From positions 1-59,195 of the IMG/VR virus record IMGVR_UViG_3300008448_000086: a DNA stretch of 59,195 nt. The stretch is one strand, 5' to 3'. Positions 727 through 50,301 of this stretch are shown one piece after another. This stretch comes from a virus (Duplodnaviria > Caudoviricetes). The translations under genes were made by a program, and so were the position numbers. The first letter of the stretch is position 1. The number at the start of each line of letters is the position of its first letter. The notes beneath the pieces were generated by a model. The model worked only from the letters and a program-made list of their open reading frames with translations. It made no database searches and had not been told where the DNA came from.

Positions 727-728
727 AT

Positions 729-1573: not shown

Positions 1574-1578
1574 AATAT

Positions 1579-2604: not shown

Positions 2605-2616
2605 TATTTTACTTTA

Positions 2617-3072
2617 TTAAGCCGAATAATCCATTCCGTTAGCCATGATGAATGCAGATGTTCCACCAGATAGGTTTGCTAAAGTAGTAGCTCTTAATAC
2701 GTCATTTGGCATTAATGGAATATACTGTCTTCCAGTATTATCAATTGGTAAGCCAGGAATGTTTATTCCATTCAAGAAGTCTACTACAAACCTAGCAGCA
2801 TTTGTGTTACCACTTGATACGGGAATATTAACTAGCCCAACAGGAATTACAGTGCTACCTCCTCTTAAAATATACACAAATGTATTAATAGCTACAGTAT
2901 CGTTAGTTGATGCTGTCAAACTAATAACCCTTCCTCCATTTGCCCCAGCTGTGTATATAGTAGTTCCATTAGTATTACTACCAAGCGTGCCTATTGTTGT
3001 ACCTGTAAGAACAGCTACACCTGCATTTGGTACATTTGCAACTTTTATAATCGCTGAATTTGGTAAAGCCAT
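2617..3072 (-). CDS. Tail-associated beta-sandwich protein
   Basis: 151 aa G/T/N-rich ORF in the tail operon. Confidence 0.55.
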   Translation of the reverse strand: MALPNSAIIKVANVPNAGVAVLTGTTIGTLGSNTNGTTIYTAGANGGRVISLTASTNDTVAINTFVYILRGGSTVIPVGLVNIPVSSGNTNAARFVVDFLNGINIPGLPIDNTGRQYIPLMPNDVLRATTLANLSGGTSAFIMANGMDYSA

Positions 3073-3076
3073 GATA

Positions 3077-3904: not shown

Positions 3905-4257
3905 TAAGCTGTAGTTATTTCTTGTTGTACTTTATATTTACCACCTATGAGCGTCTTTCTAAGACCATTAGAAAATGTGCATTGCAGGTCGTAGAAGTAT
4001 GTTCCAGGAGTAAGAGTTGTTATGTAGTTAAATGTAACAGTGCTACCTGTAACAGTAAATTCAGAACCTGCCTGAAGCGTAGCTGCTATCGTAGGAGATT
4101 CTGAGTCTGCTTTGATATACATAAGCAGCGTAGCTCCTGTAAAATTCAAGGGCTTTTGCTCAGCATCCTTAAAGTTAACTACGGCATCAAAGGTATCCCC
4201 CTTAATAACCGTAAAGTTTACGTCTGCCTTAATTATGTTTGATACTTCTGTTGCCAT
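3904..4257 (-). CDS. BppU-N-like tail adaptor protein
   Basis: KGDTF..PLNFTGA..GTYFYDLQ..KTLIGG pattern. Confidence 0.55.
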   Translation of the reverse strand: MATEVSNIIKADVNFTVIKGDTFDAVVNFKDAEQKPLNFTGATLLMYIKADSESPTIAATLQAGSEFTVTGSTVTFNYITTLTPGTYFYDLQCTFSNGLRKTLIGGKYKVQQEITTA

Positions 4258-4258
4258 A

Positions 4259-7111: not shown

Positions 7112-7112
7112 A

Positions 7113-7676
7113 TTAATAGAATTGAATCACAAATACATCACCATTCATAATCGTATCCCCTACGCCTGTAAGGTTTACGGTAGAGCCTCCCTTGAACCAA
7201 TCGTAAAAGTTCAATGCGTTTCTTACGATACGTATCCTCTTATTGAGAATCCTTGAATCACTAAACGAGGTAAGTCCTGCTGTAATATCAACCCCACCAA
7301 CAAGGACAATGTCATCAGGAAGCGTAGCACCGCCACCTCCACCAGGAGTGGATGGGATAGCCAAATAATCGTCGGTCAACCCAACAAATGCCGAGCTTCC
7401 TGTGTTGTATATCGGAAGCTGTCTGCCGAAGTCGTAGATGGATATTCTACTAATTAACAGCGAAACAGCTCTATCTTTCTTCTCCTGCTGGATATATGCT
7501 GACTGATAAGACCAGGATACCGCCTTCTTTAAGACGTATATCAGCAATCTCTCCTTCTCATAACTATTGTCATTCTCAAAGAACCTCTCGTCGGTTGACT
7601 TAACGCCCAACTTGTACAAGGCTTTGTTAGCCCTGCTAATCCATGTCTGAACTTCAGTTGTACTATATTGTGGCAT
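7113..7676 (-). CDS. Tail hub/virion structural protein (putative)
   Basis: 187 aa ORF coupled to flanking tail genes. Confidence 0.5.
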   Translation of the reverse strand: MPQYSTTEVQTWISRANKALYKLGVKSTDERFFENDNSYEKERLLIYVLKKAVSWSYQSAYIQQEKKDRAVSLLISRISIYDFGRQLPIYNTGSSAFVGLTDDYLAIPSTPGGGGGATLPDDIVLVGGVDITAGLTSFSDSRILNKRIRIVRNALNFYDWFKGGSTVNLTGVGDTIMNGDVFVIQFY

Positions 7677-8194
7677 TAACCGTAGATTGCGTCGTTATCG
7701 GTGATGAATTTAATTCTGTCTATTGCATGCTGAGAGCTGAGGATGTCATTATCGGCTTCTGCATTTTTAGCTGCCTCGATGTCGATGACAATCTTCATGC
7801 TTTCTCTCAGATAATCGTTGTTGTTTACAAGTGCCGGCTCGATAGTCATTTTATTAACTCTCTCAAACAGAGCCACTTTGGAGTAGCATACCAGCGTAAC
7901 CACCTTTGAAAGGGAGTACACGCTACCTACCACAGGGGATGCCGGAGTGATTTCCAAGGACACCGTAAAGGCGTAATCCTGGTCAATATCCGTGATAGTG
8001 ATAACATCGCTCGGATAGGTTACGTATGAGAAGTTTATGGACTTATACAGGCTCCCGTCTGACTTATAGATGTACAGATACCTGCTGGTCATAGCAGCCT
8101 TTGTTTCGGGTGCTGCGTAGTTTGTGGTATCTGTTATTTGAAATGTTGTGCAGTCTGCGCTCTGACTTGCCGTAAATGCTGCTGTGATGGGCAT
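7676..8194 (-). CDS. Tail hub/virion structural protein (putative)
   Basis: ATG at 8194 (MPITAAF) follows a TATTTTTG box; the TTG at 8212 lies inside that box. Confidence 0.55.
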   Translation of the reverse strand: MPITAAFTASQSADCTTFQITDTTNYAAPETKAAMTSRYLYIYKSDGSLYKSINFSYVTYPSDVITITDIDQDYAFTVSLEITPASPVVGSVYSLSKVVTLVCYSKVALFERVNKMTIEPALVNNNDYLRESMKIVIDIEAAKNAEADNDILSSQHAIDRIKFITDNDAIYG

Positions 8195-8209
8195 CTTGCT
8201 TATTTTAAA

Positions 8210-8243
8210 CAAAAATAAAAAAACCCCTCCGTAAAGAGGGGTT
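8210..8243 (-). terminator. Intrinsic terminator fused to a -7 promoter box
   Basis: aacccctc-tttacg-gaggggtt hairpin plus U-tract that continues into TATTTTTG (8217-8210). Confidence 0.75.
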
Positions 8244-8265
8244 GTTTATATCCACACTTTCTTAT

Positions 8266-11200
8266 CTAGAATCCGCCATCGCCTAAAGCTCCTGCTCCGC
8301 CTCCTAAGCCTCCTGTCCCTAAAGCTCCTGCTCCACCTTCGAAACCTCCTGTTCCTAAAGCTCCTGCTCCACCTCCATATCCGCCACCTTTCTTCTTTTT
8401 TTTCTGCATTTCGCGCTCAAACTGCCTTTGCTTAGCCTCTATGTCTTTCAGCATCATATTAGACCATTTCCTGGCATCACCTGTCATCATGCTAAGCGCA
8501 TATCCATATTTACCACCAAGAATTTTTAGGTTAAATATTATTGAATATGCCTTTAGTGCCGCTGCTGTATAAAGTTCATCCTTGTCAATCTCCTTGTTTT
8601 CTACAGCCTCCTTTCGAAGCTCGTTCCATGTCTTTGCGAAAGATACAAGTTGCACAAGCTCTGAAGATGCGGTAATAGTAGCAGCAGTTTCTTCCCAATC
8701 CTTGGTAGCCTCTCCTGTATAATAATGCCTGTCAAGTGCTGTAGCGTAGTCTTCCCCATGTATGATGTCTATTGGTCTAATGTTATAAACGTCAAACCAT
8801 ACGCTTTCTACCTCTTTTATCTTTCTTTTACGCTCTTCTATCTCTTTTTTAGTCAATCCTTTTTCAGCAAGTTTAGCTACAGCGTCCTCCTTCCAAAGAT
8901 TAAATAAAGCGAACCCTCCTGCCATCTTTATTCCGTAACTCGTTTGAGGGTCTAAGGAAACAGAAAGAGCAGCGCCTGTAAGGTCTCTATAAATATTATC
9001 TTTCTGCTCTTTAAACATTTGTTTCATCTTATAAAGTTGCCTTTCCCAAAACTTTGGATTAAGAGCCTTTTTACGCACATCTTCTTTATCTTCTTCTTCA
9101 CCGGCAAGCATGATAACACCTGTTGCTGTAACAAACAAAAGACCTGTATATTTTCTTGTCAATGTATATTGTATAATCGGAATTAGTTGCTCGAAAACAG
9201 CACTATTTAATTTAATTGCTCTGTCTTTAAATGATAACCTACTGTTTAATGAGAACGCCTCTTTTATATTGCTCATAAAAGCACTATGTTGAACACCTGC
9301 ATATCCTTGCAAGAATCCTGTAACAAGAGCCGTTACATCATCTTTTTTTATAGTAAACCAAGCTCTGTCTGTTTTAAATATTCTATTAAGCAAGTTTCTT
9401 ACACCTCTGCTTAAGAATCCACCAGTTGCTCCTGTACCAACCGCAACAGCCGTACCTACAGGACCTCCTATAAGAGTACCTGCTACGATTCCGATGGTAG
9501 GAACCATACCTGGGTTAATCCTTAATGGGTCTCTGGTAAATGACGATAATCCATATTGCTTATCAACAAACGAGTCTGCAACAGAAGACGCTTTTTCTAC
9601 GGTGGCCAAATTCAATGCCCTATAGATACCTCTTTCATCTTCAAATGCCTTATGGTCGAAATCCTCTCCTGTTAATCGCTTGAACGCAGTTTCAAACCTA
9701 ATCATCCATGCTAGCTTTTTAGGTCTGATATCCTGCCACCCAATTAATTTCTGCTCTCTTTGAAGCTGTTCTGTAGACTTTGAATATTCGTAAATATAGT
9801 TGTCAGGATACAAGTTCATTGTTCTCGCTATTTGAGAACCAGTAAACTGGACAACCTTCATGTAGTCTTTCCACTCAAATTTACCTTTTGGCGTTCTGTA
9901 CGCAAGATTTCTTGGGTCAATAAGCCTCCATGTCTGACCAGGCATTTCTCTGTTTGCAGACGCTAACGCAGATGCTGTTTTTAATATATTAACAGGATAT
10001 TCGAGAGCAAATTGCCTTATTACAGATATAAGATAACTCTTTGCGGTAAACGATTGTATCCCCGACAGAGCCTTAAACATAGTCCCATAACTATCGCTAA
10101 GAGACTTTTCATTTTTTAAGAGATTTGCATTAAGTCTTTCTGTTGCATAAAGCTCTATACCTTGCAAATACCTTGCTGCAAACAAATCTCCGTCTGCTTC
10201 AGCCTTTTTAGCAGCTTCATTGATACCTTTAATGTAATCAAGATATGGCTTTACTTCAGCTAATAGATACAGCGATTTTATGTTATTGAACAGTACTCTG
10301 TTGCCATCCAAATCAAGCGCTCCAACATTACCCCTTCTTGACTGAAGCATGCCATTTGCAAGACCTCCATACTCAAATCCTCCGTTCAGGTAATTTTCCG
10401 TATCCGTGATTTCAGTTACAGCCTTGTCTTGACGTACTCTTCTTGGGAAATAGTTTTTAAGGAATCCTTTTAAGTTTCCAGATATGACCATTGCAGCCTC
10501 GGTAAGACCTTCTGTCTCATTAATTACCTGCCTCCAAATGTTTAAGCCTTCTTTTTGCTTAGGACTTAATAACGCCATCAACTGGCCTTCATTCAATCCG
10601 GCAAGCGTTGTTGTTCCATTATTAGTTAACGCAGCATAAGCGATTGTATTGACAAGGTTATCGTAATTCTGTTCAACATCAGCCTTGTATGTACCAGGAG
10701 ACTTATAATGCTCAGCCATTGTCTTATCTGAAAATATAGGTCTTCCATTTTCATCCGTCTTAACGCCTATTATATTTCTCTGAAGAACTACATCAATAGG
10801 AGTTTCTCCTTCTGCAAGGTTGGATATATCATCTATTTGATTGGCTATTATTGTTGTCATCCTAACGGATATATCATGCAACAGCCTTGCCTGATATCCT
10901 CTCTTTGTAAGTTCTTTTAGTTTAGCGAATAACAAATCCAATCCTGCTCCATATTTAGAACTAACAGCAGCTATAGCTTTCTTGATAGCCTTATGATTGC
11001 TATTGTCTGCAAATGCAAGCATTGCTGACCTTAACTGCTCAAGTTTAGGTTGCGTTTTATTCATTGCAGCTTCTTGATGACCAGACATAGGGCCGAATAT
11101 ATCTCTTTCAAGCATACCCATGTCAAACTCATCTTTTTCAATTCCTGCAAGTTCTACGTCTAACTGATGAATCCTTAATGTTGCAAGGTTGTTCTTTATT

Positions 11201-14200
11201 GCTTCAGGAGACACACTACCGCCTTCTACATCTGTTAAAAGACGAGCTGTTTCTCTAAGTGCATTAACAAGTCCACTTGAAGAGAACTTGGCTCTTTTTT
11301 CTGAAAGATTTTTAGCCCACTCGCTGGTTACTGTTTCAATCTTATACTTGATAGCAGATATATATTCTTTGTAAGCATCATAGTTATAGTTTCCGTCATT
11401 ATAAATATCATCAAGTGCATTATTTAATGACAGCAGCTTTGATGGCTTGTTTTCTGCTAAATAATTTAAGTAATTATCAGTAAGATAATGATTCAGCATC
11501 CTTAAGAACTGATTATAAAGGTCTGTGCTTTTTATCTTGTTTCTTAAGTTAGATACAGGAGCAGCCTCTGTAACAGCCCCTCTTCCTAGTTCATAATCAG
11601 CCAATAACTTAGATACACTTACCCTTACGAATGGCTTGCCGTCTGTTTCTCCTCTGCTGCTTATTTTATCTTTAAAAACATCGGGGACTTGTGATTCGTT
11701 ATCGTAAGTAAATGTAACAATATTTCCAGCCTGCATGTCCCTAACCTGCTCTTCTAGCGTTGGCTTCCCGATTTCCTCTGCGCCCTCTGGAGCTTGCTGT
11801 GCTTTAGCCGTAACCACAGGAGACGCTAGCTCTTTTTTCATTTGAGCAATCCTGTTAGAAAGCGAACCTCTAACATCTTGTATCTTATCGGATACCATTT
11901 GGTCTATTGGCTTCGGAAGAGCTGCTCTTAACTCATCATATTTCTGCTGTAGCTGTGTTTGTTGTTCAGGAGTAAAAGCATTCGCCATGCTCTTCTTTTC
12001 TGCTATATTATCCATTGCAGACTGAAGACGCATAAGAGATTTAAGGTCTGATAAATCCAATGCACCTGTCTTAACTTTTTTATTAAGATTTGTAAGTGTA
12101 GTATTTAACTTATCAAACTCTGTTTTAGGCGCTTGAGTGTTTGGAGCTGTTATAGTATTTAGCACATTAAGCGCAGCGTCAATCTTTGTATTATCACCTT
12201 TAGCTATCTGTCTTAAATGCGTATTAAATAAGCTCAATTCTTCAAGCGTAGCATTACTCCTATCCCAATCATTTGGGCTTACTGACAGAATATTTGCTAT
12301 TTTAGGGATAAGTTCTCCTGTATATTCTGTTTTGGTTTTAGACTTTATCTTATTAATAAGTCTTCCCATATCATCTATCATCTTCCTTCTGTATCCTTTC
12401 TCTACGATAGCAGATATTTCTCTTGAAGCCTCATCCATTGATGCCTGAAGGTCTGGGCTTTTATCAAATACAACGCTCTGGATTTCTCCTACAATTTTAT
12501 TAACCTCGTTTGGCGTCAACTCCATTCCTCTGCCAAAAGCAGCGTTCATTGCTTTGAACATGTCTCTTAGAGAAGCCACCATCTTCTTTGAGTTATTAGA
12601 CAGCTGGCCTATACCTTTTATTTGGCTTGCTACAAGGATTGACATATATTTCCTTGCTGACATGTTCACCATTTCAGCTTCCAAAGGAGATATCTTTTCG
12701 GTTCTTGGGAAAGCAGCGTTAACAGCATCTCTAGCTATACCAGATGCCGCTTTAACAAGAGTTATAGATGGTATATTTACAGGATAGTTCCCTCTTGCAT
12801 ACATGGAATCTATCTTGTTTATAAGTTCAGAAAGTATGTTTTTATAAGCTTTAGTAGGAGTTGTCTTACCATCCTTCTTTGCTTTGTTTGCTTTAACTAT
12901 GTCATCGGCTATTTGCTGTGCTGCATCAACCAAAGACCTTACTTGTGGAGTAGCAAACATACCCATCACTTGAGCTTCAGTTTGCGCTGTTCTTTCTTGC
13001 CCTCTTAACTCATTAATCTTCTTATCAAGTTCCTGAGCAAGCACATTATCAGGCTCGATATCCTTTATACCAAATTCTCTTTTATTAGCATTTATATATT
13101 CTATAGCTTTACCAAATGCGCTATATGCCGCTTCATCAACATTGCCAAACCTATTCATCTCGGCAGCCATAATTCTATCGAGAAGTTCTTTTATTTTAGG
13201 CCTTACCCCTTTCTCGAAATCAGCTACTTTTCTGTTGTACGCTTTTTCAATTATTGATGTAACATTTGCTGTAACCTCATCTATGTTTTCTTCAGAGAAT
13301 GGCTTAGCAAATACCGCATCTTCCATCTCTTTCATTATCTTTCTAAACTCAGCATCTGTATATTTAAGGTCTTTCCCAAGCTTAGCGTTCATCGCCTTAA
13401 ATATGTCATTTACAGCTTTTCTTACAGCCTTAACATTTTCAAATATTTTAGCACCTGCTCTTGCCTGCTGTCTCATTAAGTCTGCTATGTACTTTCTTGT
13501 AGACATAGTAACTTGCTCCACTTCTTGAGCAGACATTTTTTTAGCACTAGGATATGCTGCATTAACAGCATCTCTAGCTATAGACTTAGTAAGTTCAATC
13601 ATTATTTGCGGAGATGCAGCTTCTGGCACTCCTCCAGCCTCGTACATTTTTTGTATAGCTTTTTGAACAGTAGAAAATACCTTCTGATAAGCTACTAATG
13701 ATGACTTTTCTGTATTTTTTAAGCTTTCTGCTACTCTATTTGCTATAGTAACAGCACCTTGTATTCTTGGATTTGAATAAATCTGATTTATCCTTGTTTG
13801 CCTTTGCTGTTCTTTTATCTGCTCATCCGTCATGCCGGCCATTACACCAACCTTCTCTATCTCAGCAACTTTTTTCATTGCATCAGTAACATCCTTCTCG
13901 GTGTAGTTGTTATCTGCTGCAACCTTCCTGATGGCATCCTGAAGAGCCATACCACCTTTCACTAAAGCCTTTAATGCCTTTACCATCGTCTGGATGGCAG
14001 CTAAAGGTATAACCCTTGTAGCATCACTAAGCTTACCTGAATTAAGTTCTTTCCCGATAGCCTTATCAATACCATCAAGAAAGTTAAATACCTTTTCAAG
14101 ATTTGTAGGCTCTTTAGTATCGGCTGTTAATAGCTCATCTACATTGACTGGAGCAGCTTCCGCTACGGGTGCAGCCTCTGCCGTTGGAGCAGCAGGTGCA

Positions 14201-17200
14201 GCAGGAGCAGTATAGCCGGTATCAGTAATCCATTGCTTAACCTTATCAACAACAGGTTGACCTAGTTGCCTTACAGCACGGTCTTCACCTTCTGTTACTT
14301 GCTGAGCTAGTTCGTCCATCAATTGAACCTCCTGACCAGGATTTATTGTCCTAGTATAGTTTTGCATGGCAGGAGTCTGCTCTGGAAGAGCTGTTATTTC
14401 TTGGACGGCTTGTTGCGCTTGGCTGCCGAAATTGCGATTGCGAGTATCTGGGCTTGGCTGCGCGGTCTCCCCGACTGCCCCTTCTGCTTGCCTTTCTTGA
14501 GGTTGTCCTTCTTGAGTTCCCGTAGGTTGTACGATATCGCTTGGTTGACCGACTTCTTGCTGCGGTCTTTCGCTGATTTGAGTGGCATCTTGTGGAATTT
14601 GAGTTTGAGTAATAGGAGTTGTTTCTGTTACAGGTGCTGCTTCAGCAGGAACTTGTCCTATAATTTCACCTGTATCTGATATAATATTTCTTTGTCTTGC
14701 AGGAGCTTCTGCCTTTACCTTATCTACCTCTGCATTAAGGCCTGCATCATCTGTATAAATCTTTACATTACCGGCAGCTACCTCTTCCTTCACTTCCGGT
14801 GTATTCATCACACTCTTTACCCCATCAGGAGTTGAAGTAAATACAACACCTGGCTGTATCTCGATGGTGGCAAGTGGCGTAGTTCCGTTGACTACACCTT
14901 CTATTTCCTTCTCCTTAGCTGCAATCTGCTTCTCAACAGCTTTTCTTGCAGATGGGTCCGTTACGTTATTCAGTGTATTTTTTAACTCGACAACCTCTTG
15001 ACTAAGAGATGCAAATATCTGCGTCTGCTGAGGATTCAATCCTATCTGCCTGGCTTCTTCGATAGTTTTAGCTACCGTCTGCACTTCCTTCATTCCTTCA
15101 CCAAGAGTCTCCTCATCCATATCATTTGCAAGGGCATCCAGTTGTACGCCTGCCATTGCAGCAGTTTCTCCATTTTTAATAATTGATGCAGCGACGGATT
15201 GTGTTCTTACACTTGGAATATTCTTTTTATCAAACAAGGCTTTGTACGAAGAAGACACGCCTAAGCTTGCACCCCCAAGGATACCACCAACTGCGCCTCC
15301 TTCAATAGCTGCATTCATAGCATCTTTTGAGAAGAAAGCCTGCGTAAAACCTAATTTAGCATCTGCTCCTGATGACAATTCAGATGCTGTCTGCCAAGCC
15401 TCTTCAAGAGCGTTAGATGCAATACCAGTCCCTATCTGCCCTAGTCTTTTAGACACGGGCGTTTTAGCTGCCTTAAGTCCTGACAAAGGAGCAAACATTC
15501 TCTGTACAAGTACCTCTGACAGAACAGTAGGGAAGTTCTTTATAAAAGATTCCTGACCTGCTGCTCTTGCAGCTTCCATATCACCTGTATTCTCTAGCAC
15601 TCTCTCCATTACACCACCGCTATTTTCAATGCTTTCTGAACCAAAAGCTATAATACCACCTATGTATGGATTTTTAGTTAGAGCTGTTGTAAGCATACCT
15701 GCTGCCATTGAAGGACCTGACTGAGCAATGGATTGCGCCCAGTACCCTGGCTTAAACCAATTCTGACCTAATGGAAGCTTTTCTATGGAGTAGTTAAGTT
15801 CTGCTGTCTTACCTGAATACTTCATGGCATCAATAGCATCAGCCTCAAGTCCAAGAGCATTTAATACAAGAGCTGTTTTACTCTTAAGTGAGCCAAGTGC
15901 CGACATGCCAGTTTCGGTAAGTATCTTACCAATAGCAGTTGTGCCAACCATGCCACTCATGCCACTCATATCAATGAGCGACTGAGCATAGCCTTTATTC
16001 TGTTCTTCTCTTGCCTTTGTTTTGCTGTCAATTATAGAGCCTATATCTTTTGTGAACTGGTCTACTTGAGCCTGATTAAGTCCTTTTAAATAGGTCTCTG
16101 CCTCTGCCTTAAACGCAACATCCATCTCCTTATTTATCCTCTTAACAGCATCATTTGTCTTTGATACTTCTATTTTAATGTCAGCAGCTATGCTGTCAGC
16201 TATCTGGTCGTATTTAGGATTTACGAACTGAGCATATTCTGTATCAAATATCTCTTTGGCTCTTCTTTCAAATGACTCCTGAAGTGCCGGCTGATAGATT
16301 CCTGTAATTCCTTCAAGCTGCTTCATTGCCTTATCTTGTGCAGCAGCCCAATAGAAGTTAGCGTCAACAGAAGCGTCTGAAATAGCCGAAGAATACTTTT
16401 CCTGTATCTTCCTTACCTTTTCTTGCAGAAGCCTCTCTTCTGTCTCTATTTGCCCTTTAAATCTATTTTTGACATCCGTTTGCTTACTTAACAAGAATGC
16501 TTTCTGTTGAGCTTCAGTACTACCTCCTGTCATCTTCTTGGCTATATCATCTCTTCCTTGAAAAGTAGAAAGAATAGTATTTAAATTTTGCTTATCGCCT
16601 ACCTTACTCCATAAAAATGTTTTCAGGTATCTTCCTGCATTGATTCCTTGTGCAGAAATAGCCTCATCCATATCCTTCCTCAACAACCCTTCGTCGATAT
16701 ATTCTACGCCTGCTGTATTCTTCTTGATGTACTTTTCTACGTTACCTCCGAACTTTATGATATCATCAAAGCTACCAAACAGATAATCTGATATTTTATC
16801 AGGTACTTTGTTTTTTACTAAATCATTGATTACGCTGTTCTTCTGTATTAATGCCTTCTGCTCATTATTTGCAAGCTCGGATTTGAATTGCTCGGTCTCT
16901 GCTTGACTACCAAATGCAGCAGGAGTTTCCCTAAAGAAACTTCCTTGCGTAGAAACAGATAATCTTTTATTTGCCTTATTAGTTTTTGCTATTGTCGCAT
17001 GCTGTTCAAATGCCATTTCGGCTCCTGACAAATCACCTATTTCAAGCTTCTTTGCTTTCTTGGTCGGTAATACCTGTTGTTGCTTCTTAGGCTTTATAGG
17101 CTCTGTAATAGCTGATATATCCCCAAACTTAGGTTGCTGAGGAACTATCGCAGGAGCTGGAGTAACAGTTTGATTTGTTTTAGGAACAGGTTCTTGAAGT

Positions 17201-17256
17201 CCATCCAATTGCTGCTCCTGACCTAGTTGTTCTTGGGTGAGTTGTTGTTCTGCCAT
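8266..17256 (-). CDS. Giant internal virion (ejection) protein, 2996 aa
   Basis: Helical A/K/E/Q-rich; hydrophobic GxxxG segments; last of three internal-protein genes after the nozzle gene; own TATATTTG box at 17268-17261. Confidence 0.75.
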   Translation of the reverse strand: MAEQQLTQEQLGQEQQLDGLQEPVPKTNQTVTPAPAIVPQQPKFGDISAITEPIKPKKQQQVLPTKKAKKLEIGDLSGAEMAFEQHATIAKTNKANKRLSVSTQGSFFRETPAAFGSQAETEQFKSELANNEQKALIQKNSVINDLVKNKVPDKISDYLFGSFDDIIKFGGNVEKYIKKNTAGVEYIDEGLLRKDMDEAISAQGINAGRYLKTFLWSKVGDKQNLNTILSTFQGRDDIAKKMTGGSTEAQQKAFLLSKQTDVKNRFKGQIETEERLLQEKVRKIQEKYSSAISDASVDANFYWAAAQDKAMKQLEGITGIYQPALQESFERRAKEIFDTEYAQFVNPKYDQIADSIAADIKIEVSKTNDAVKRINKEMDVAFKAEAETYLKGLNQAQVDQFTKDIGSIIDSKTKAREEQNKGYAQSLIDMSGMSGMVGTTAIGKILTETGMSALGSLKSKTALVLNALGLEADAIDAMKYSGKTAELNYSIEKLPLGQNWFKPGYWAQSIAQSGPSMAAGMLTTALTKNPYIGGIIAFGSESIENSGGVMERVLENTGDMEAARAAGQESFIKNFPTVLSEVLVQRMFAPLSGLKAAKTPVSKRLGQIGTGIASNALEEAWQTASELSSGADAKLGFTQAFFSKDAMNAAIEGGAVGGILGGASLGVSSSYKALFDKKNIPSVRTQSVAASIIKNGETAAMAGVQLDALANDMDEETLGEGMKEVQTVAKTIEEARQIGLNPQQTQIFASLSQEVVELKNTLNNVTDPSARKAVEKQIAAKEKEIEGVVNGTTPLATIEIQPGVVFTSTPDGVKSVMNTPEVKEEVAAGNVKIYTDDAGLNAEVDKVKAEAPARQRNIISDTGEIIGQVPAEAAPVTETTPITQTQIPQDATQISERPQQEVGQPSDIVQPTGTQEGQPQERQAEGAVGETAQPSPDTRNRNFGSQAQQAVQEITALPEQTPAMQNYTRTINPGQEVQLMDELAQQVTEGEDRAVRQLGQPVVDKVKQWITDTGYTAPAAPAAPTAEAAPVAEAAPVNVDELLTADTKEPTNLEKVFNFLDGIDKAIGKELNSGKLSDATRVIPLAAIQTMVKALKALVKGGMALQDAIRKVAADNNYTEKDVTDAMKKVAEIEKVGVMAGMTDEQIKEQQRQTRINQIYSNPRIQGAVTIANRVAESLKNTEKSSLVAYQKVFSTVQKAIQKMYEAGGVPEAASPQIMIELTKSIARDAVNAAYPSAKKMSAQEVEQVTMSTRKYIADLMRQQARAGAKIFENVKAVRKAVNDIFKAMNAKLGKDLKYTDAEFRKIMKEMEDAVFAKPFSEENIDEVTANVTSIIEKAYNRKVADFEKGVRPKIKELLDRIMAAEMNRFGNVDEAAYSAFGKAIEYINANKREFGIKDIEPDNVLAQELDKKINELRGQERTAQTEAQVMGMFATPQVRSLVDAAQQIADDIVKANKAKKDGKTTPTKAYKNILSELINKIDSMYARGNYPVNIPSITLVKAASGIARDAVNAAFPRTEKISPLEAEMVNMSARKYMSILVASQIKGIGQLSNNSKKMVASLRDMFKAMNAAFGRGMELTPNEVNKIVGEIQSVVFDKSPDLQASMDEASREISAIVEKGYRRKMIDDMGRLINKIKSKTKTEYTGELIPKIANILSVSPNDWDRSNATLEELSLFNTHLRQIAKGDNTKIDAALNVLNTITAPNTQAPKTEFDKLNTTLTNLNKKVKTGALDLSDLKSLMRLQSAMDNIAEKKSMANAFTPEQQTQLQQKYDELRAALPKPIDQMVSDKIQDVRGSLSNRIAQMKKELASPVVTAKAQQAPEGAEEIGKPTLEEQVRDMQAGNIVTFTYDNESQVPDVFKDKISSRGETDGKPFVRVSVSKLLADYELGRGAVTEAAPVSNLRNKIKSTDLYNQFLRMLNHYLTDNYLNYLAENKPSKLLSLNNALDDIYNDGNYNYDAYKEYISAIKYKIETVTSEWAKNLSEKRAKFSSSGLVNALRETARLLTDVEGGSVSPEAIKNNLATLRIHQLDVELAGIEKDEFDMGMLERDIFGPMSGHQEAAMNKTQPKLEQLRSAMLAFADNSNHKAIKKAIAAVSSKYGAGLDLLFAKLKELTKRGYQARLLHDISVRMTTIIANQIDDISNLAEGETPIDVVLQRNIIGVKTDENGRPIFSDKTMAEHYKSPGTYKADVEQNYDNLVNTIAYAALTNNGTTTLAGLNEGQLMALLSPKQKEGLNIWRQVINETEGLTEAAMVISGNLKGFLKNYFPRRVRQDKAVTEITDTENYLNGGFEYGGLANGMLQSRRGNVGALDLDGNRVLFNNIKSLYLLAEVKPYLDYIKGINEAAKKAEADGDLFAARYLQGIELYATERLNANLLKNEKSLSDSYGTMFKALSGIQSFTAKSYLISVIRQFALEYPVNILKTASALASANREMPGQTWRLIDPRNLAYRTPKGKFEWKDYMKVVQFTGSQIARTMNLYPDNYIYEYSKSTEQLQREQKLIGWQDIRPKKLAWMIRFETAFKRLTGEDFDHKAFEDERGIYRALNLATVEKASSVADSFVDKQYGLSSFTRDPLRINPGMVPTIGIVAGTLIGGPVGTAVAVGTGATGGFLSRGVRNLLNRIFKTDRAWFTIKKDDVTALVTGFLQGYAGVQHSAFMSNIKEAFSLNSRLSFKDRAIKLNSAVFEQLIPIIQYTLTRKYTGLLFVTATGVIMLAGEEEDKEDVRKKALNPKFWERQLYKMKQMFKEQKDNIYRDLTGAALSVSLDPQTSYGIKMAGGFALFNLWKEDAVAKLAEKGLTKKEIEERKRKIKEVESVWFDVYNIRPIDIIHGEDYATALDRHYYTGEATKDWEETAATITASSELVQLVSFAKTWNELRKEAVENKEIDKDELYTAAALKAYSIIFNLKILGGKYGYALSMMTGDARKWSNMMLKDIEAKQRQFEREMQKKKKKGGGYGGGAGALGTGGFEGGAGALGTGGLGGGAGALGDGGF
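8272..8390. repeat. Three Gly-rich repeats (GGAGALG[T/D]GG) at C-terminus of the giant protein
   Basis: cctaaagctcctgctcc occurs three times. Confidence 0.85.
14394..14588 (-). CDS. Small basic protein overprinted in an alternative frame inside the giant gene (MPLK..QAIAIA type, DUF6496-like)
   Basis: MPLKSAKDRSKKSVNQAISYNLREL...QAQILAIAISAAKR resembles a stand-alone small phage protein family; A/C-rich leader with A at -3. Confidence 0.7.
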   Translation of the reverse strand: MPLKSAKDRSKKSVNQAISYNLRELKKDNLKKGKQKGQSGRPRSQAQILAIAISAAKRNKPSKK

Positions 17257-38986: not shown

Positions 38987-39059
38987 TAGAAATATTTTTG
39001 TAAATATAGTAACATATTAGCTGTTAACAGCACCTAATTGTATGCACACTTATAGAAAC

Positions 39060-39118
39060 TAAAAACCCACCAGCAAGACTGCCGATGGGAATCAGTTCTC
39101 TTTCGAGGCTTTCACGAG
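39060..39118 (-). ncRNA. Putative small antisense RNA C
   Basis: TATCTTTG (39129-39122), terminator cccatcggca/tgctggtggg + U5; complementary to plus strand 39253-39289. Confidence 0.55.
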
Positions 39119-39199
39119 ATTCAAAGATACAACTTATTTTGATAAAAAAAAATATTTTAAATAATTTTTTTATTTCAGATACTTTTATTAATTTGCTGT

Positions 39200-39640
39200 C
39201 ATATTCAAGTTCTTTCAAATAGGTTCCAGTGATTCCTTAATATCACAGACACACTGCCTTTCTCGAGGTAGTTACGGCTTTCACGAGATGAAGCTTTAGC
39301 GCATCAATCCTAAGCCCAGAAGTCGGGTAATAACTGTCAGCATAGACAGCCACGTCTCCCCGATAGTGTCGCAACTGGAATAAGTATATAAAGACCTTTA
39401 TGGGTAGTATCTGATGAGAAATAGAGATTATCTCAGGACCAAGGGATACTACGAGGGTGTACCACTACGGTGGCAACGTACAGCATAAAGCATAAAACTT
39501 ATTCTAATGTAAGCGAAATTCATCCCGCATCTAAGGGGACTTTCATGCCTTCTCGTAAACAGCTTCCTACTCGATAACATAGCTCGCTCCCTAGTATTTT
39601 CAAGCGCTTCTATCTTCTGCCGGTCGCTCGCTTTATATTT
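39200..39640 (+). ncRNA. Putative structured non-coding RNA
   Basis: GC-richer ORF-free block; long-range stems ttccagt/actggaa, gaataagt/acttattc, gtagtatc/gatactac; strand inferred. Confidence 0.45.
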
Positions 39641-39831
39641 TGTATTTATTTATTTAATAATTCAAAATTCAAAATTTAGCTGTTAAAAATACAGAGTGAT
39701 TGAGTTTAGGTAAAGTACATAAATGCTAGGGGTTCCCCCCTCCCCCATCCGCACCACCGCATCGGGGGAAATCGATTCCTGCTACTGAGTACCCTCAAAT
39801 GTTCGCGGGATGTTCACTAGATAGTTGCTTC

Positions 39832-39908
39832 AGTCTACTAACTTTGTAGAGTATAAAGGAAAGTCTATCTAATTGGTAGACAATGAATTAGTCTAGTAAG
39901 TTGGTAGG
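39832..39908. repeat. Three palindromic AGTCTA-N9-TAG(A/G) sites
   Basis: agtctactaactttgtaga 39832, agtctatctaattggtaga 39862, agtctagtaagttggtagg 39890. Confidence 0.75.
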
Positions 39909-40214
39909 GTGGGCATCCCCTCCGCTCCTTTCCTGATTATAACCTTCGCAAATTTTACCACTAACTTTTTTTTATTACATTAATAAAATTATTTTCTAGA
40001 ATATGTAATAAGATAGTTTTAAATGTCACGGGTTATTGTGTTAATTGATTTGAGCTGATAAATTTACTTTCCTTCATTTACTTTCCTTTATTACTTTATT
40101 AAATATTATTTAATGGTCTATAAACAGTAATTTGATATTTTCTAATTAACAGCCCTCCTTATTGAATGTTTTCTAAATTTTGACATAAGTGTTTTTTATA
40201 TGAATTATTCGCCT

Positions 40215-40222
40215 TAGCTTTG
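40215..40222 (+). promoter_or_regulatory. -7 box (TAGCTTTG) for early transcription
   Basis: TAnnTTTG ~70 nt before the first early ORF, downstream of an AT-rich tract. Confidence 0.55.
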
Positions 40223-40291
40223 TGAGCGAAGCGAACATGCTTCAAAAGTTAATGTTCTTTATTTATTTATTCATTTTTAAATCATGTTATC

Positions 40292-40783
40292 ATGAGCACA
40301 CAAACAAACAACGGGAGCGCGACCGTAACCAATACGCGCCAGGTAGTTAATTTGTCAACTACGAAAACAGGCAAAAATTTAACGGGAAAGCAGTTAAAAA
40401 ATAAGTTGGCAAATGACAAGGCAAAGGAATTGAGAAAAGCCACAAATGAAGCTCAAAAAGTAGCTACACAAACGGCAAAGGACGCGGAAAAAACTTTATC
40501 TTTTCAGTACAAAAGGCTTCAAAAGTACGCTCAAAACTACTGCATCTCTTTGTCTCTTGAAACGGGAAAGGATGTATCCTTCGAAAGTATCAAGGCGCTC
40601 AAATTTGCTGATTTTACGCCATATATTACCGAACGTGAAACGGCTGTATTTTTCGGTAATTGGTCGTTTCCCCGTTTCTTAACAATTATCAAAAGATACT
40701 ACAGAGCGGAGGCAAAGAATACTTTGTCGCCTGAGCAGATATCGGAACTTTCCGCCATAGTTGACGAAATTAACGCGGAATAA
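40292..40783 (+). CDS. First early protein, function unknown
   Basis: 163 aa ORF, divergent from late arm. Confidence 0.7.
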   Translation: MSTQTNNGSATVTNTRQVVNLSTTKTGKNLTGKQLKNKLANDKAKELRKATNEAQKVATQTAKDAEKTLSFQYKRLQKYAQNYCISLSLETGKDVSFESIKALKFADFTPYITERETAVFFGNWSFPRFLTIIKRYYRAEAKNTLSPEQISELSAIVDEINAE

Positions 40784-40789
40784 TACACC

Positions 40790-41630
40790 CTTACACCCCT
40801 ATACGTTAAAACGTACAGACAAAATTTTGCTTGTCTAGGGGTGCAAATATACCGGAAAAAAATACAGATATCCGGTAAGCATTGGTAAAAAATAGCCGAT
40901 ATATCAGGCTAACAATTCAGTGAATTGCTGATATATGCTTCATGCAGTGCATGAACGGGCAAAGATATGCAAATGTCATCTGTAGTTCTTTTGGGGCGAC
41001 ATTGCGACATATTTAGGATAAAGTAAGGATATTCAATATTTACGTATAATCGGGTAAAATTGCAGTGCAGTCCGGTTATATCGGTAAAGTTTACCTAGTA
41101 ATTTATTTTGTATCTGTTAAGCATAAATTTACTTTATTCGCGTTAAGTCGTTTCTAATTATTCAAGAAACGGACAAAGTAGCCCTGCATGATGCTGATGC
41201 AGTATGTTTTCCATGTGGCAATAAACGAACAACAAATGGTATTTAAGCGGAGCAAACCGCCTATACACCGGACCGCCGGAAGGTATGTCATGCAATAACT
41301 TATTTATGTTTATGCTCAAAGTAGACATGCCGGTAATTAAAACAAACGGATAACTTGTATTTTCGATTTATCATTATGCAAGTATGTGACTATCTGTTAA
41401 CAGCAATGTGCAAACGTCTGATTCTAAGGTGCAAACGTCTCAAACAAACCAACAATATTCACCTAACACAATTAGTAAGCCGGAACCGGCATGACTATAC
41501 TCGCCCTGATGTCGAAACAAAGGGTTAATTGTGCAAGGTGCAAACATATTGTTTTTAATAAACTCTCTTCAGGGAAAGTAAAGACAAGTGCAGGTGATTA
41601 GCGCGCCAGGTTCGATTCCTGGCTTTCCCC
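40790..41630 (+). ncRNA. Large (~850 nt) ornate structured RNA candidate
   Basis: ORF-free; nested multibranch stems with G-U pairs that only work on + strand; ends in tRNA-like domain. Confidence 0.65.
41572..41630 (+). tRNA. D-armless tRNA-like element (not a canonical tRNA)
   Basis: Acceptor gggaaag/ctttccc; T-arm ccagg-ttcgatt-cctgg; 9-nt linker in place of D-arm; 4-bp stem with 9-nt loop. Confidence 0.6.
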
Positions 41631-41662
41631 TATATCTGACAAAACAGATATTTTTTAAGCTT

Positions 41663-41869
41663 ATGAAACAGTTACAAAAAGCATTTGCCAACGTAAATCA
41701 AACGGCAAAATCTCAAGGCGTTTGCCCTATTCTTGTTGTGTTCAATGGATTATGCTTTGTTGATACTGAGGTGAAAAGATTCGAGAGAGAGAAGGCTGTC
41801 AAAGCGCAGGCAAAAAGAGGCGGGAAGTACAAAGCGCCACCAAAATTCACAGGCATTTTTAATTTTTAA
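41663..41869 (+). CDS. Early hypothetical protein
   Basis: ATG 41663 (MKQLQKAF). Confidence 0.6.
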   Translation: MKQLQKAFANVNQTAKSQGVCPILVVFNGLCFVDTEVKRFEREKAVKAQAKRGGKYKAPPKFTGIFNF

Positions 41870-41899
41870 ACTAAATCAAATAACACAAAACAAAACAGC

Positions 41900-42100
41900 A
41901 TGAAAACCAATTACACAAAGGTCTGCTCAGCTAAAGATGGCAAGGTCATCCGCTCAACAGACAAACCTATCAGCACTCACGAAAGAATCATCATTGCCTT
42001 AACAGAACTTGGCGAAGATGTAAATGAGTTTAACTTGAAGGCAAGCTTCAGGGCTCACCAAAGAAAATTAGCAAATCCAAACCTTAACCCCTTCAACTAA
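41900..42100 (+). CDS. Early hypothetical protein
   Basis: A-rich leader, ATG. Confidence 0.6.
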   Translation: MKTNYTKVCSAKDGKVIRSTDKPISTHERIIIALTELGEDVNEFNLKASFRAHQRKLANPNLNPFN

Positions 42101-48466: not shown

Positions 48467-49150
48467 ATGAGCAAAATGAAAGATGTACTTATCGACCAAA
48501 TGAACAACCAGTCAGCGACCAAATCAAATGCAGAGTACCTGCGCTATGTAATCGATAATCTATCCAAGCCAATGCCTTACCAGTGGCGTGTGCAATCATT
48601 CAACAAAAACAATACCAAGTGTACCTGCGTAGCCTACATCGACGCAAGGCAGGCAATGGATACGCTTGACAAGTATTGTGTTTACGGATGGACAAAGAAG
48701 TACCTTGACATCAAGGGTAGCATCTACTGCTCCATCGGTATAGTGATGCCGGATGGAAGTATCATCGAGCGCCAGGACGTAGGCTCAGAAGGGAACTTTG
48801 AGGCGGAGAAATCAGCAGCATCCGATGCCTTCAAGAGGGCAGCTGTCAACTTTGGGGTAGGCAGATTCCTGTATGACCTTGATATTGTAGACCTTGATGC
48901 AGGTAGCAAGGACTTCAACGGCAAGCAGTATCCTTTCCCAGCAGATAAGAACGGCAATAAGATATGGGATATTACAGAGCATATCAATAAGATGCAGGGC
49001 GTAGTTGATGGAGTTCATCCGCTTCAGGAAGCCTTACAGAAGCTGTCAGGTATGAGTGACAAGGCCAAGGCTATTGAGTGGGCAAAGACACTTCCAGATA
49101 GCGTAAAGACTCACCAATCCTTCCGCCAGGCATTCAGTAAAAGATTCTAA
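48467..49150 (+). CDS. Rad52/Sak-like single-strand annealing protein
   Basis: WRVQ..VAYIDAR..D.LD..EKSAASDAFKRAAVNFGVGRFLY. Confidence 0.85.
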   Translation: MSKMKDVLIDQMNNQSATKSNAEYLRYVIDNLSKPMPYQWRVQSFNKNNTKCTCVAYIDARQAMDTLDKYCVYGWTKKYLDIKGSIYCSIGIVMPDGSIIERQDVGSEGNFEAEKSAASDAFKRAAVNFGVGRFLYDLDIVDLDAGSKDFNGKQYPFPADKNGNKIWDITEHINKMQGVVDGVHPLQEALQKLSGMSDKAKAIEWAKTLPDSVKTHQSFRQAFSKRF

Positions 49151-49273
49151 TAAGAATGAAAATTAGATAAAAATAGTTCTTTTTTTTATGAAAAAAACTG
49201 GACATTTTGCTCAGTGTATTGAGCAATTTTACTCAATGCTTCGGATAAAAACCGAACTAGATATTGTTATGTT

Positions 49274-50301
49274 ACATAACGTATGGTGCTATACGCTCGT
49301 TTTAATGGCGTATAGCACGTGTTACAGGTAGTAGGGATTTATACCACAAAACTTAATTAGAAGTATAAACAAAAAAGAATTTAAAAATGAGCGTAGGCAA
49401 AAAAGAAAAAATTAACGTATTATCATTATTTGATGGTATGAGTTGTGGACAGATTGCATTGAATAAAGTAGGAATTGAGTATGAAAATTATTTTGCTTCT
49501 GAAATAGAACAAGCACCTATTAAAGTTACACAACACAATTATCCTAATACTATACAATTAGGAAGTGTATTAAACGTAAAAGGTTGTGATTTGCCAAATA
49601 TAGATTTACTAATTGGTGGTAGTCCTTGTCAATCTTTTTCAAATGCTGGAAAAGGAGAAGGTTTTGATGGGAAAAGTGGTTTGTTTTGGGAATATGTACG
49701 AATATTAAAAGAAGTAAATCCAACTTATTTTTTACTTGAAAATGTGAAAATGAAAAAAGAATGGAAAGATATTATTTCTAAAGAATTAGGAGTTGAACCG
49801 ATAGAAATAAATAGTTCTTTAGTATCTGCTCAAAATAGACCGAGATTATATTGGACAAATATACCAAATGTTGATGTTCCAAAAGATAAAGGACTTTTAT
49901 TTAAAGATGTATTAAATACTGATTATGAATTTAAACCTTTAACTAAATGGTTTTTTTCTAAATGGGGAGATAAACAAAAAATAGATACATTAAAGACAAT
50001 TGATGCTGAAAAATCATTTTGTTTAACTACAAATAAAAGCCACTCAAAAAACTATTACTTAACACCTGATAAAACTATGGCTCGTATGCTTGAAAGAGAT
50101 GAAGTAGAAAGATTGCAAACTATACCAAATGGATATACAAATATTGTTTCAAAAACAGACGCACATAAAATGATAGGAAACGGATGGACAGTAGATGTGA
50201 TTGCTCATATTTTTTCTTTTTTAAGAGGGGAGGAAAAATTTTTAAATTCTTTTTCAAACGAAAATGTTTAATCGAAGCGATACACCCCTATTACCTGTAA
50301 C
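49274..50301 (+). mobile_element. attC-like gene cassette carrying the C5 MTase
   Basis: acataac + 11-bp hairpin + gttacagg upstream; ccctattacctgtaac downstream complementary to the cassette start; AT-rich cargo. Confidence 0.5.
49387..50271 (+). CDS. DNA (cytosine-5) methyltransferase
   Basis: LSLFDG (I), GGSPCQ (IV), ENV (VI), QNRPR (VIII), ERLQ (IX), GNGW (X). Confidence 0.92.
   Translation: MSVGKKEKINVLSLFDGMSCGQIALNKVGIEYENYFASEIEQAPIKVTQHNYPNTIQLGSVLNVKGCDLPNIDLLIGGSPCQSFSNAGKGEGFDGKSGLFWEYVRILKEVNPTYFLLENVKMKKEWKDIISKELGVEPIEINSSLVSAQNRPRLYWTNIPNVDVPKDKGLLFKDVLNTDYEFKPLTKWFFSKWGDKQKIDTLKTIDAEKSFCLTTNKSHSKNYYLTPDKTMARMLERDEVERLQTIPNGYTNIVSKTDAHKMIGNGWTVDVIAHIFSFLRGEEKFLNSFSNENV

Follow-up and report, generated by a model that had tools for sequence, protein, structure and literature searches.

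A candidate family of large structured RNAs at the head of the early region in freshwater podophages

What is encoded by a long interval that carries no gene but separates a small gene from the early genes of a phage? This question is raised by IMG/VR virus record IMGVR_UViG_3300008448_000086, a linear virus contig of 59,195 bp with an estimated completeness of 86% (hereafter the window; coordinates are positions in it, + is the strand shown, W stands for the window and L### for related loci). Between a 163-aa open reading frame (ORF) and a set of small early ORFs, positions 40784–41662 on the + strand form a non-coding interval of 0.88 kb, which a first-pass annotation had read as a large ornate RNA, possibly of a new class. 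We conclude with moderate confidence that 40784–41630 encodes a member of an uncatalogued family of ~0.6–1.1 kb structured + strand non-coding RNAs (ncRNAs), for which we propose co-transcription with the flanking genes, processing and a role in trans. The alignments described below show that the predicted fold is conserved by compensatory substitution over its whole length and that it is modular, with exchangeable 5′ modules bearing AGU triloops, a core with invariant nucleotides, and a 3′ tRNA-like minihelix.

Structure and conservation of the RNA locus

The interval had been described as free of genes, and no candidate gene emerged in it: the longest ORFs that overlap it encode 57, 56 and 45 aa, and none of them is conserved. 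The sole ORF over the core (41491–41601, 36 aa) was considered as a coding sequence and rejected, being broken in relatives by 1-nt indels and missing ATGs. All complementary segments listed by the first-pass annotation were found in their places, and the following pairings were confirmed: CACCCCT (40794) with AGGGGTG (40837), enclosing two hairpins; ACCGGA (40851) with TCCGGT (40871); ATATATCAG (40899) with CTGATATAT (40928); GGATAAAGTA (41016) with TACTTTATTC (41130); TATAATCGG (41045) with CCGGTTATA (41072); ATGTTTAT (41306) with GTAGACAT (41321); ACTTGTAT (41353) with ATGCAAGT (41376); and AACAATAT-CACCT-CACAATTAG (41451–41475) with TTAATTGTG-AGGTG-ATATTGTT (41525–41553). The two strands of a competing pairing, CATGCCGGT (41326) and ACCGGCATG (41485), are likewise present, but the pairing is not kept in L030, L046 and L002 when the alignments are read by eye. 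The 3′ end, originally placed at 41570, has to be moved, as the structured element extends from ~40784 to 41630. Folded alone, the sequence is more stable than its shuffles on both strands, with z-scores of the minimum free energy (MFE) of −4.4 (+) and −4.2 (−); single-sequence folding therefore establishes dense inverted repeats and leaves the strand undecided.

Relatives were sought by probing IMG/VR contigs with the terminase of the window, which returned nine loci with terminases 81–94% identical. The seven of these that include a full 10 kb upstream of the terminase (two being duplicates of each other) share one gene order: a 132-aa gene on the − strand, a gap of ~1.2 kb, a + strand ORF of 142–167 aa, a second gap of 567–1076 nt, and early ORFs. 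A single 32-nt block of the second gap is common to all seven, and a scan with this block across IMG/VR and the metagenomes of the Joint Genome Institute yielded 24 distinct variants of the 3′ part. The RNA occupies a fixed place, directly after an ORF of ~155 aa and directly before small early genes; no gene interrupts the interval in any variant, and the distance from the ORF stop to the core varies from 429 to 843 nt. Gap 2 is better conserved than its surroundings: it is 76–82% identical to relatives at the DNA level, and the flanking ORFs give almost no nucleotide matches. In protein sequence, the upstream ORF reaches only 44–50% identity in those relatives that have an RNA matching the 5′ domain of the window. 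Flanking small ORFs used as probes recovered no relatives among viral contigs, and a distant blastn search of the phage collection with 40700–41700 gave no matches. The core pattern is absent from the genomes of 185,579 prokaryote species (one genome each), and a covariance model (CM) of the core finds exactly one copy in a relative that is 94% complete. A pattern scan for the 5′ domain returned two known contigs and one chance match in a coding region (L047), and the 5′ regions of the variants form a mosaic network of shared modules. With 24 variants, a universal 3′ core, a mosaic 5′ region, and a single copy per genome seen on phage contigs only, the family fits the earlier suggestion of a new large ncRNA class.

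The 5′ domain was aligned as 40778–41215 of the window with four relatives, five sequences in all. RNAalifold predicts 103 pairs in it, with 95.3% of 470 cells paired. Changes on both sides of a pair were found at 29 of the 103 pairs, compared with 2–7 in six controls with slid partners, and none of 500 shuffles reaches these values. Every hairpin that had been named in this part at the outset falls among the supported helices, all of which are read on the + strand. The closing helix H1 (40794–40843, formed by 40794–40800 and 40837–40843) has CG, GC and AU at one position and UA and CG at the outer pair, and in L037 both of the hairpins inside it are swapped for other hairpins. H2, the ACCGGA/TCCGGT hairpin with a 14-nt A-rich loop (40851–40876), has five of its seven pairs changed on both sides and 100% of its cells paired. 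H4 is a long hairpin (40899–40936) with eight of nine outer pairs changed on both sides and an invariant tip, itself an AGU-triloop hairpin (40914–40926); another AGU-triloop hairpin (40939–40955) has four compensatory pairs out of six. Further downstream, a long-range helix of 41016–41025 with 41130–41139 delimits a domain (41016–41139) of 36 pairs, five of them compensatory, with 94–100% of cells paired, which encloses 41045–41080 (including an AGU hairpin at 41060–41070) and a hairpin at 41083–41095. In total, four invariant AGU triloops stand on covarying stems in the 0.88-kb interval, compared with 30 on the + strand of the 59-kb window, a nine-fold enrichment over the rest. A conserved hairpin followed by a U-rich tail (41184–41202, +), detected by a scan for terminator-like structures, has two compensatory pairs, and the block around it (41173–41204) is 100% identical in L008, L031 and L044.

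For the middle part, the alignment of 41160–41445 comprises four sequences (W, L030, L002 and L046) and yields 46 predicted pairs, seven of them compensatory. This middle domain (41247–41400, +) consists of a hairpin at 41247–41260, a helix of 41282–41291 with ~41320–41331, and a hairpin with a conserved loop at 41353–41383. The helix competes with the ATGTTTAT/GTAGACAT pairing and is preferred by the four-sequence consensus, with one compensatory pair. Just 5′ of the core lie two direct copies of a 15-nt motif, 21 nt apart (41405–41440, +), with related copies at 40840 and 41537; a similar motif precedes helix P1 of the core in many relatives, although not in all. All three matches of the window to GGTRCAAANNT (40840, 41428 and 41537) fall inside the RNA locus on the + strand, where 1.19 would be expected window-wide; two of the three overlap 3′ strands of helices, and 41407 is a further related position. 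Members of a second subfamily, whose 5′ region cannot be aligned with that of the window, have 69 predicted pairs in this region, 28 of them compensatory (five sequences). The 5′ regions of L014, L040, L025 and L039 carry repeated hairpins with AGUUC or GGUUCGA-type loops, which are T-loop-like, instead of AGU triloops.

The universal part of the RNA is a three-way junction (41451–41553, +), the pattern of which occurs in all 24 variants. It comprises P1 (41451–41475 paired with 41525–41553), P2 (41479–41490), an invariant joining strand (41491–41503) and the P3 hairpin (41503–41525); the P3 loop is invariant, at 12–13 nt across variants, and the P2 hairpin is variable. Joint use of MAFFT and RNAalifold on 22 of the 3′ parts recovered only P3, the variable helices having been misaligned, and for this reason per-class alignments and a CM were used. 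Most variants, when folded independently by MFE, show the same junction, and the per-class alignments lead to the same architecture. The CM R1, built from one class, finds all other classes on the + strand at 36.6–112 bits, with no − strand score above 18.5. In the core alignment of 22 distinct sequences, standard pairs occupy 96.0% of 645 cells, and 22 of 32 pairs show double changes, compared with 4–9 when partners are slid by 1–3 columns; none of 500 shuffles attains these values. An unfitted alignment read by eye shows the same replacements: the third pair of P3 varies among C-G, A-U and U-A, and other hairpins stand in for the whole of P2. The first-pass annotation had made covariation among homologues a test of its proposal, and heavy compensatory change is indeed found in the 5′ domain and in the core. 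A hammerhead-like reading of CUGAUG...GAAAC in P3 was rejected by eye, as it leaves no space for stem II and most variants lack GAAA.

The same alignments bear on the strand and on the nature of the molecule. Cells with G·U outnumber those with A·C by 39 to 5 in the 5′ domain and by 40 to 7 in the core, so the folded form should be the + strand RNA. On the same 5′ alignment, RNAalifold predicts 103 pairs and −60.1 kcal/mol for the + strand and 77 pairs and −51.8 kcal/mol for the − strand. The T-loop of the tRNA-like element can be read on the + strand only, and the flanking genes are on this strand as well. The earlier preference for RNA over DNA cruciforms is supported by the G·U excess, by the strand preference of RNAalifold and by the T-loop, and this comparative evidence points to a + strand RNA and not to DNA cruciforms or protein-binding palindromes.

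The tRNA-like element and its transcription context

The 3′ end of the structured element is a tRNA-like minihelix (41572–41630, +) built from a 7-bp acceptor-like stem, a variable insert and a 5-bp T stem with a 7-nt UUCGANU loop, plus an unpaired C after the stem. Across the 20 of 23 variants that have it (16 distinct sequences), the element measures 48–59 nt and lies ~15–20 nt 3′ of the core; its insert is 20–27 nt and its T stem 4–5 bp long. As MAFFT misregistered the 5′ acceptor strands, pairs were counted by a script from the ends of each element. Among the 16 distinct sequences, acceptor positions 2, 4 and 5 and T-stem positions 3–5 covary, and in all 16 the loop-closing pair G53-C61 is G-C and the loop reads UUCGANU. 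The adjacency to tRNA noted in the first pass survives in this altered form: ARAGORN detects no canonical tRNA beside the locus, but the RNA has a tRNA-like minihelix built into its 3′ end. ARAGORN predicts no tRNA genes in the window or in L002–L010, and the D arm and the anticodon arm are absent. The Rfam tRNA model has no matches, and tRNA-Sec reaches only 17.8 bits where its gathering score is 47; the best sub-threshold Rfam match over 40500–41900, the SpF41 small RNA with 26.2 bits (gathering score 52, E 0.16), lies over the tRNA-like part. Transfer-messenger RNA (tmRNA), including its two-piece form, was considered and rejected, given that ARAGORN is negative, that pair 3:70 is G-C in all 16 sequences and that both acceptor strands are contained within 59 nt. 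The 3′ 21-mer of the element has no matches in the 185,579 species genomes, and the element is therefore not a copied host tRNA end.

Downstream of the tRNA-like element, relatives have a conserved A-rich leader of ~30 nt before the next ATG. The first small early ORF after the RNA (41663–41869, +) encodes 68 aa in the window, and its ATG in relatives is located ~30–35 nt past the element. Only the window and L024 carry at this point a terminator-like structure, a 7-bp A/U-rich hairpin with a run of six U (41631–41657, +), in place of the A-rich leader conserved in the others. The consensus terminator scan misses this hairpin, the stem of which has too few G-C pairs.

Directly 5′ of the RNA is the 163-aa ORF (40292–40783, +), a member of a fast-evolving, phage-only family. 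An ORF of 127–167 aa occupies this position in all 18 variants that include at least 1 kb of upstream sequence, and its products are 23–94% identical. The AlphaFold2 model of the 163-aa product is all-helical (predicted local distance difference test score, pLDDT, 79), with a basic N-terminal helix rich in Lys and Arg. The product has no Pfam family above cut-off, no PHROG, no fold in the PDB at E ≤ 0.001 and no lead from the atlas; there is a weak match to HTH_NDX below cut-off, and seven homologues were found, all unnamed. Always linked to the RNA, the product is one candidate partner of it.

We take TAnnTTTG to be the consensus of the Bacteroidota-type −7 promoter box. A candidate box, TAGCTTTG (40215–40222, +), lies ~70 nt upstream of the ORF. 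In all 17 sequences examined, TAnnTTTG stands within 160 nt 5′ of the start codon of the homologous ORF, at 40–75 nt in 16 of them and at ~140 nt in L007. On the + strand of the window, boxes stand at 39839 and 40215, and the next one is at 43752; there is none inside gap 2 of the window, nor on the + strand of this gap in 10 of 18 variants. A scan for sigma-70-type promoters gave 10 sites, with 10.3 expected. The conserved unpaired segment GGCAAAGAUAUG at 40967 reads TAnnTTTG on the − strand and occurs at the same place in L030, L009, L008, L037 and L042; it could be an antisense promoter or a coincidence.

In the mechanism that we propose, host RNA polymerase would make the RNA early, from the conserved Bacteroidota-type promoter upstream of the ORF, and the primary transcript would span the ORF, the RNA and the early genes. 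A single transcript of ORF, RNA, tRNA-like element and early ORFs appears to be the simplest reading of the gene order, and the hairpins at 41184–41202 and 41631–41657 complicate it. The tRNA-like minihelix may serve as tRNA-type punctuation, with RNase P and a 3′ tRNA-processing enzyme cutting at it; this role is proposed because the minihelix has the features of a minimal RNase P substrate and is located at the boundary between RNA and mRNA. A coaxial stack of acceptor stem and T arm is a minimal RNase P substrate, and punctuation of the tRNA type is exemplified by mascRNA at the 3′ end of MALAT1, by mitochondrial tRNA punctuation and by the stable RNAs of the T4 tRNA cluster. As in these systems, a tRNA-like fold is found exactly at the junction of a structured RNA and a downstream message; unlike in these systems, the D arm and the anticodon arm are absent, three of 23 variants have another, two-hairpin junction, and cleavage is so far a prediction. 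The cuts would set a stable, structured RNA free, and the mRNA downstream would retain a short leader rich in A. The freed RNA would then act in trans, its invariant core nucleotides and AGU loops binding a protein partner, which could be a host factor or the product of the upstream ORF. Both the unpaired, invariant positions of the core and the recurrent AGU loops have the look of surfaces for recognition by such a partner. The RNA might correspond to the early long non-coding RNAs (lncRNAs) of the crAss-like phage phi14:2, which are abundant and persist.

Comparison with known RNAs and alternative explanations

Rfam 15 (4227 models) contains no family that reaches its gathering score in the window or in nine related loci. 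Over 40500–41900, GOLLD, ROOL and OLE are not listed even at E ≤ 10; tRNA and tmRNA give no match, and neither raiA nor HEARO nor any other large Rfam ncRNA family matches at gathering score. The first-pass annotation had been unable to match the RNA to GOLLD or ROOL, and this search, extended to OLE, likewise gave nothing. With large ornate phage RNAs it shares a length above 500 nt, an extensive structure supported by covariation, phage encoding and lack of coding potential. A literature search, which did not cover supplementary tables, found no description of this RNA; the only relevant text was the phi14:2 preprint.

Bacterial and phage RNAs longer than 500 nt with conserved ornate structure are very few; a recent preprint names GOLLD, ROOL and OLE (bioRxiv 10.1101/2024.12.08.627333). 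It describes GOLLD as having a universal 3′ region, a less conserved 5′ region and an association with tRNAs, which sometimes lie within a linker; as the family name says, GOLLD comes in part from lake metagenomes, and no function is known for it. ROOL is presented there as a large ornate RNA of phages and prophages, near tRNA islands, with no known protein partner or function. The RNA described here resembles GOLLD, as portrayed in that text, in being a large, ornate, tRNA-associated phage RNA with a universal 3′ and a variable 5′ region. It differs from GOLLD in its core motif, in having a built-in minihelix and not neighbouring true tRNAs, and in its fixed place after a dedicated ORF; it differs from ROOL in having no Rfam match and no prophage copies in bacterial genome representatives. 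A catalogue of ~10,000 candidate structured RNAs, many of them tRNA-like, was derived from the same source collection, IMG/VR, by the same covariation approach (Fremin et al. 2023, PMC10690425). Because its candidates are given there as only 29–151 nt long, the whole RNA cannot be among them.

The closest parallel in genome position comes from the crAss-like Cellulophaga phage phi14:2 (L011, NC_021806). The preprint on this phage reports that two long intergenic regions, located where the early region begins, are transcribed rightward and very abundantly, above most genes, from the earliest time point and persistently, and that the function of these transcripts 'remains to be determined' (Drobysheva et al., bioRxiv 10.1101/2020.03.07.982082). 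In phi14:2, a podophage of Bacteroidota, the rightward early region opens with one small ORF between two long gene-free stretches, the g004–g005 and g005–g006 regions. The arrangement in the window is alike, and the structured element in gap 1 of the window (described below) adds to the parallel with them. The differences are considerable. There is no similarity in sequence or by CM, and R1 finds nothing in the whole records of phi14:2 and phi19:3; the phi14:2 regions fold no better than shuffles, with z-scores of −0.3 and −1.2; and the phage is distant, the best match of the window terminase being only 29.6% identical and the 2996-aa ORF of the window lacking the DFDxD motif of the crAss virion RNA polymerase. 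We found that the g005–g006 region of phi14:2 encodes a tmRNA on its + strand (4031–4500 according to ARAGORN, which also predicts a tag peptide; 4031–4502 overall). The Rfam tmRNA model gives 46.0 bits there against a gathering score of 47 (E 1.4e-16), which makes this gene a positive control for the same tools; it is absent from the annotated features of RefSeq positions 1–9000. The contiguous minihelix with G3-C70 described here is not a tmRNA, and the two are not homologous. Both phages have a structured RNA with a tRNA-like part at the head of the early region.

Several rival explanations have to be weighed against a separate RNA that acts in trans. The interval might instead be a cis-acting leader or intercistronic control RNA of the early operon, which would work by processive antitermination or attenuation, perhaps with the ORF product bound to the AGU hairpins and with read-through of the terminator-like hairpins; lambda N/nut and HK022 put follow an analogous logic. 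Such an RNA would be well placed between a promoter-proximal first gene and the early genes, with no other box before 43752, and it would account for the terminator-like hairpins at 41184–41202 and 41631–41657, for the nine-fold enrichment of the four AGU-triloop hairpins, for the invariant linkage of ORF and RNA and for the Lys/Arg-rich N-terminal helix of the ORF product. We nevertheless consider it unlikely, although ahead of the other alternatives: a conserved structure of 0.6–1.1 kb far exceeds the needs of known antitermination RNAs, the terminal terminator-like hairpin is found in only two variants, the tRNA-like element would be left without a role, and the ORF product resembles no known antiterminator in family, fold and atlas searches. 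By analogy with GOLLD and ROOL, the RNA could also be an RNA-only self-assembling particle, the monomers of which would multimerise via conserved loops with the tRNA-like element as an attached module. Its similar size and phage encoding agree with this, as do the several invariant hairpin loops that hold short self-complementary tetranucleotides and the combination of a universal 3′ region, a less conserved 5′ region and tRNA association, which the preprint reports for GOLLD (bioRxiv 10.1101/2024.12.08.627333). We rate the particle as rather improbable, as there is no homology to either RNA and no loop covaries while staying palindromic; the candidate loops are invariant, so the test of the GOLLD paper is inapplicable.

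Two further explanations dispense with a single large RNA. The mosaic sharing of 5′ modules, the internal terminator-like hairpin and the local character of most supported helices would all agree with several smaller elements lying side by side (small RNAs, terminators, protein-binding hairpins and a leader), independent of one another and exchanged separately. To this we give slightly less credence again, in view of the covariation-supported long-range helices 41016–41025 : 41130–41139 and P1 (~100 nt span), the lack of an internal + strand box, both in the window and in 10 of the 18 variants, and the fact that no gene ever interrupts the interval. The least credible alternative, which we hold to be very improbable, is an element acting at the DNA level, such as an iteron-bearing origin of replication, a site of packaging or of genome termini, cruciforms, or an attP that carries the 3′ part of a host tRNA. 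The direct repeats at 41405–41440, the confinement of the GGTGCAAA motif to this interval, the replication genes nearby (including a protein with a DnaA C-terminal helix-turn-helix, HTH), the ends of the L004 and L005 contigs in the neighbouring gap and the T-arm-like sequence could all be seen in this light. However, G·U far exceeds A·C, the junction architectures are not needed by DNA cruciforms, and the 5′ acceptor strand, which an attP core would not require, is present and covaries. Moreover, the 21-mer is absent from the 185,579 genomes, no integrase was found among the ORFs scanned in the 86%-complete window, and the single DnaA-box match in the window lies outside the interval, compared with 7.1 expected.

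A number of observations weigh against the proposed processed, trans-acting RNA itself. The homologues all come from a narrow clade (terminase 81–94% identical), many of their contigs have near-consecutive names (Ga03159xx), and the metagenome contigs may stem from one sampling campaign; because of shared ancestry, the cell counts and the shuffle control are inflated. Because it was fitted to the model, the core alignment is biased towards the structure; only five and four sequences, respectively, make up the 5′ and middle alignments; and single-sequence folding does not tell the two strands apart. The hairpin with a U-rich tail at 41184–41202 could split the interval into separate RNAs. With six bases, the promoter motif is short, and the two strands of the window contain it 29 and 46 times. 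Three of 23 variants (L002, L003 and L046) carry a stem that closes two other hairpins and lack the T-loop form, and the RNase P punctuation is therefore not universal as stated. The terminator-like hairpin past the tRNA-like element in the window and L024 fits poorly with read-through into the early genes, and the phi14:2 regions, with no detectable similarity to this RNA, fold like shuffles.

A more far-reaching version of the proposed trans-acting RNA, which we put forward only tentatively, would make this locus the first representative of a new class of giant, ornate RNAs of phages. Combined with the always-adjacent, basic helical protein of ~155 aa, or on its own as a multimer, the RNA might form the first particle made once the genome has entered the cell, in a widespread group of freshwater Bacteroidota phages, with the tRNA-like part as a handle into host tRNA processing or translation, and the same logic might explain the early lncRNAs of crAss-like phages. 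If this were true, an early abundant RNA with a tRNA-like piece would account for these lncRNAs, one of which is a tmRNA. GOLLD, ROOL and OLE are each structurally exceptional, and those of phages are of unknown function; the present locus would add a further class, with unusually clean comparative support and in an interpretable setting of promoter, small ORF, RNA, tRNA-like element and early genes. Its natural module-swapped variants reveal which part is indispensable, and it is tied to an open question in crAss-like phages, that of the abundant early non-coding transcripts of phi14:2. The predicted RNase P site, the invariant three-way junction, the AGU triloops and the candidate protein partner provide handles for experiments.

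Genome context and the neighbouring gap

This RNA occurs in freshwater podophages of one clade, which has a distant relationship to the crAss-like phages and to the Pachyviridae. In the window, a − strand block of structural genes, which includes those for the large terminase, the portal, a protein with the crAss muzzle C-terminal domain and a 2996-aa ORF, ends at 38986; + strand genes start at 40292 with small ORFs and continue with recombination and replication genes, coding for a Rad52-like annealase, a PDDEXK nuclease, a C5 methylase, a DnaA-C-like HTH protein and a primase-helicase. Between the two blocks lie gap 1 (38987–40291), the 163-aa ORF (40292–40783) and gap 2 (40784–41662) with the RNA locus. 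In the phage collection the terminase has only distant matches, all below 60% identity with 29.6% for the top one, and of the 88 records matched, 86 belong to phages of Flavobacterium (68), Cellulophaga (15), Tenacibaculum (2) and Maribacter (1). The hosts are most likely Bacteroidota, a guess from these relatives and from the promoter boxes. All or part of the stretch occurs in 20 of the 23 sequencing runs listed, none of which is recorded as RNA; the DNA runs that contain it are labelled as lake, freshwater, aquaculture or 'fungus' metagenomes.

Gap 1 contains a second conserved structured element (39255–39545), which was aligned with seven relatives and has no Rfam match. RNAalifold predicts 78 pairs for it on either strand (−74.4 on +, −73.0 on −), 38 of them compensatory, and on the 67 pairs common to both folds G·U and A·C count 9 and 5, which does not single out a strand. 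The L004 and L005 contigs (52.4 and 65.3 kb), from two independent relatives, start within 17 nt of each other in this gap, at ~39800, and in the 65.3-kb contig, which is 94% complete, the RNA core lies ~1.4 kb from the other end. The genome may end physically within gap 1, or a repeat located there may interrupt assembly. On the − strand, TAnnTTTG occurs at 39129 and is followed by a G+C-rich terminator-like hairpin (39089–39066, 10 pairs, T-rich tail). Both features are upstream of the start of the 132-aa − strand gene, and the resulting order of promoter, terminator and gene suggests attenuation or a short − strand RNA.

Two further observations concern the flanking gene blocks. The 2996-aa ORF of the structural block (8266–17256, −) has no Pfam family above cut-off and only a sub-threshold match to EAD9; it was considered as a crAss-type virion RNA polymerase and rejected, the DFDxD motif being absent. 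In the + strand block, G+C content falls to 0.307 at 49001–50000, compared with ~0.40 elsewhere, over the C5 cytosine methylase gene (49387–50271), and this dip suggests that the region was acquired recently.

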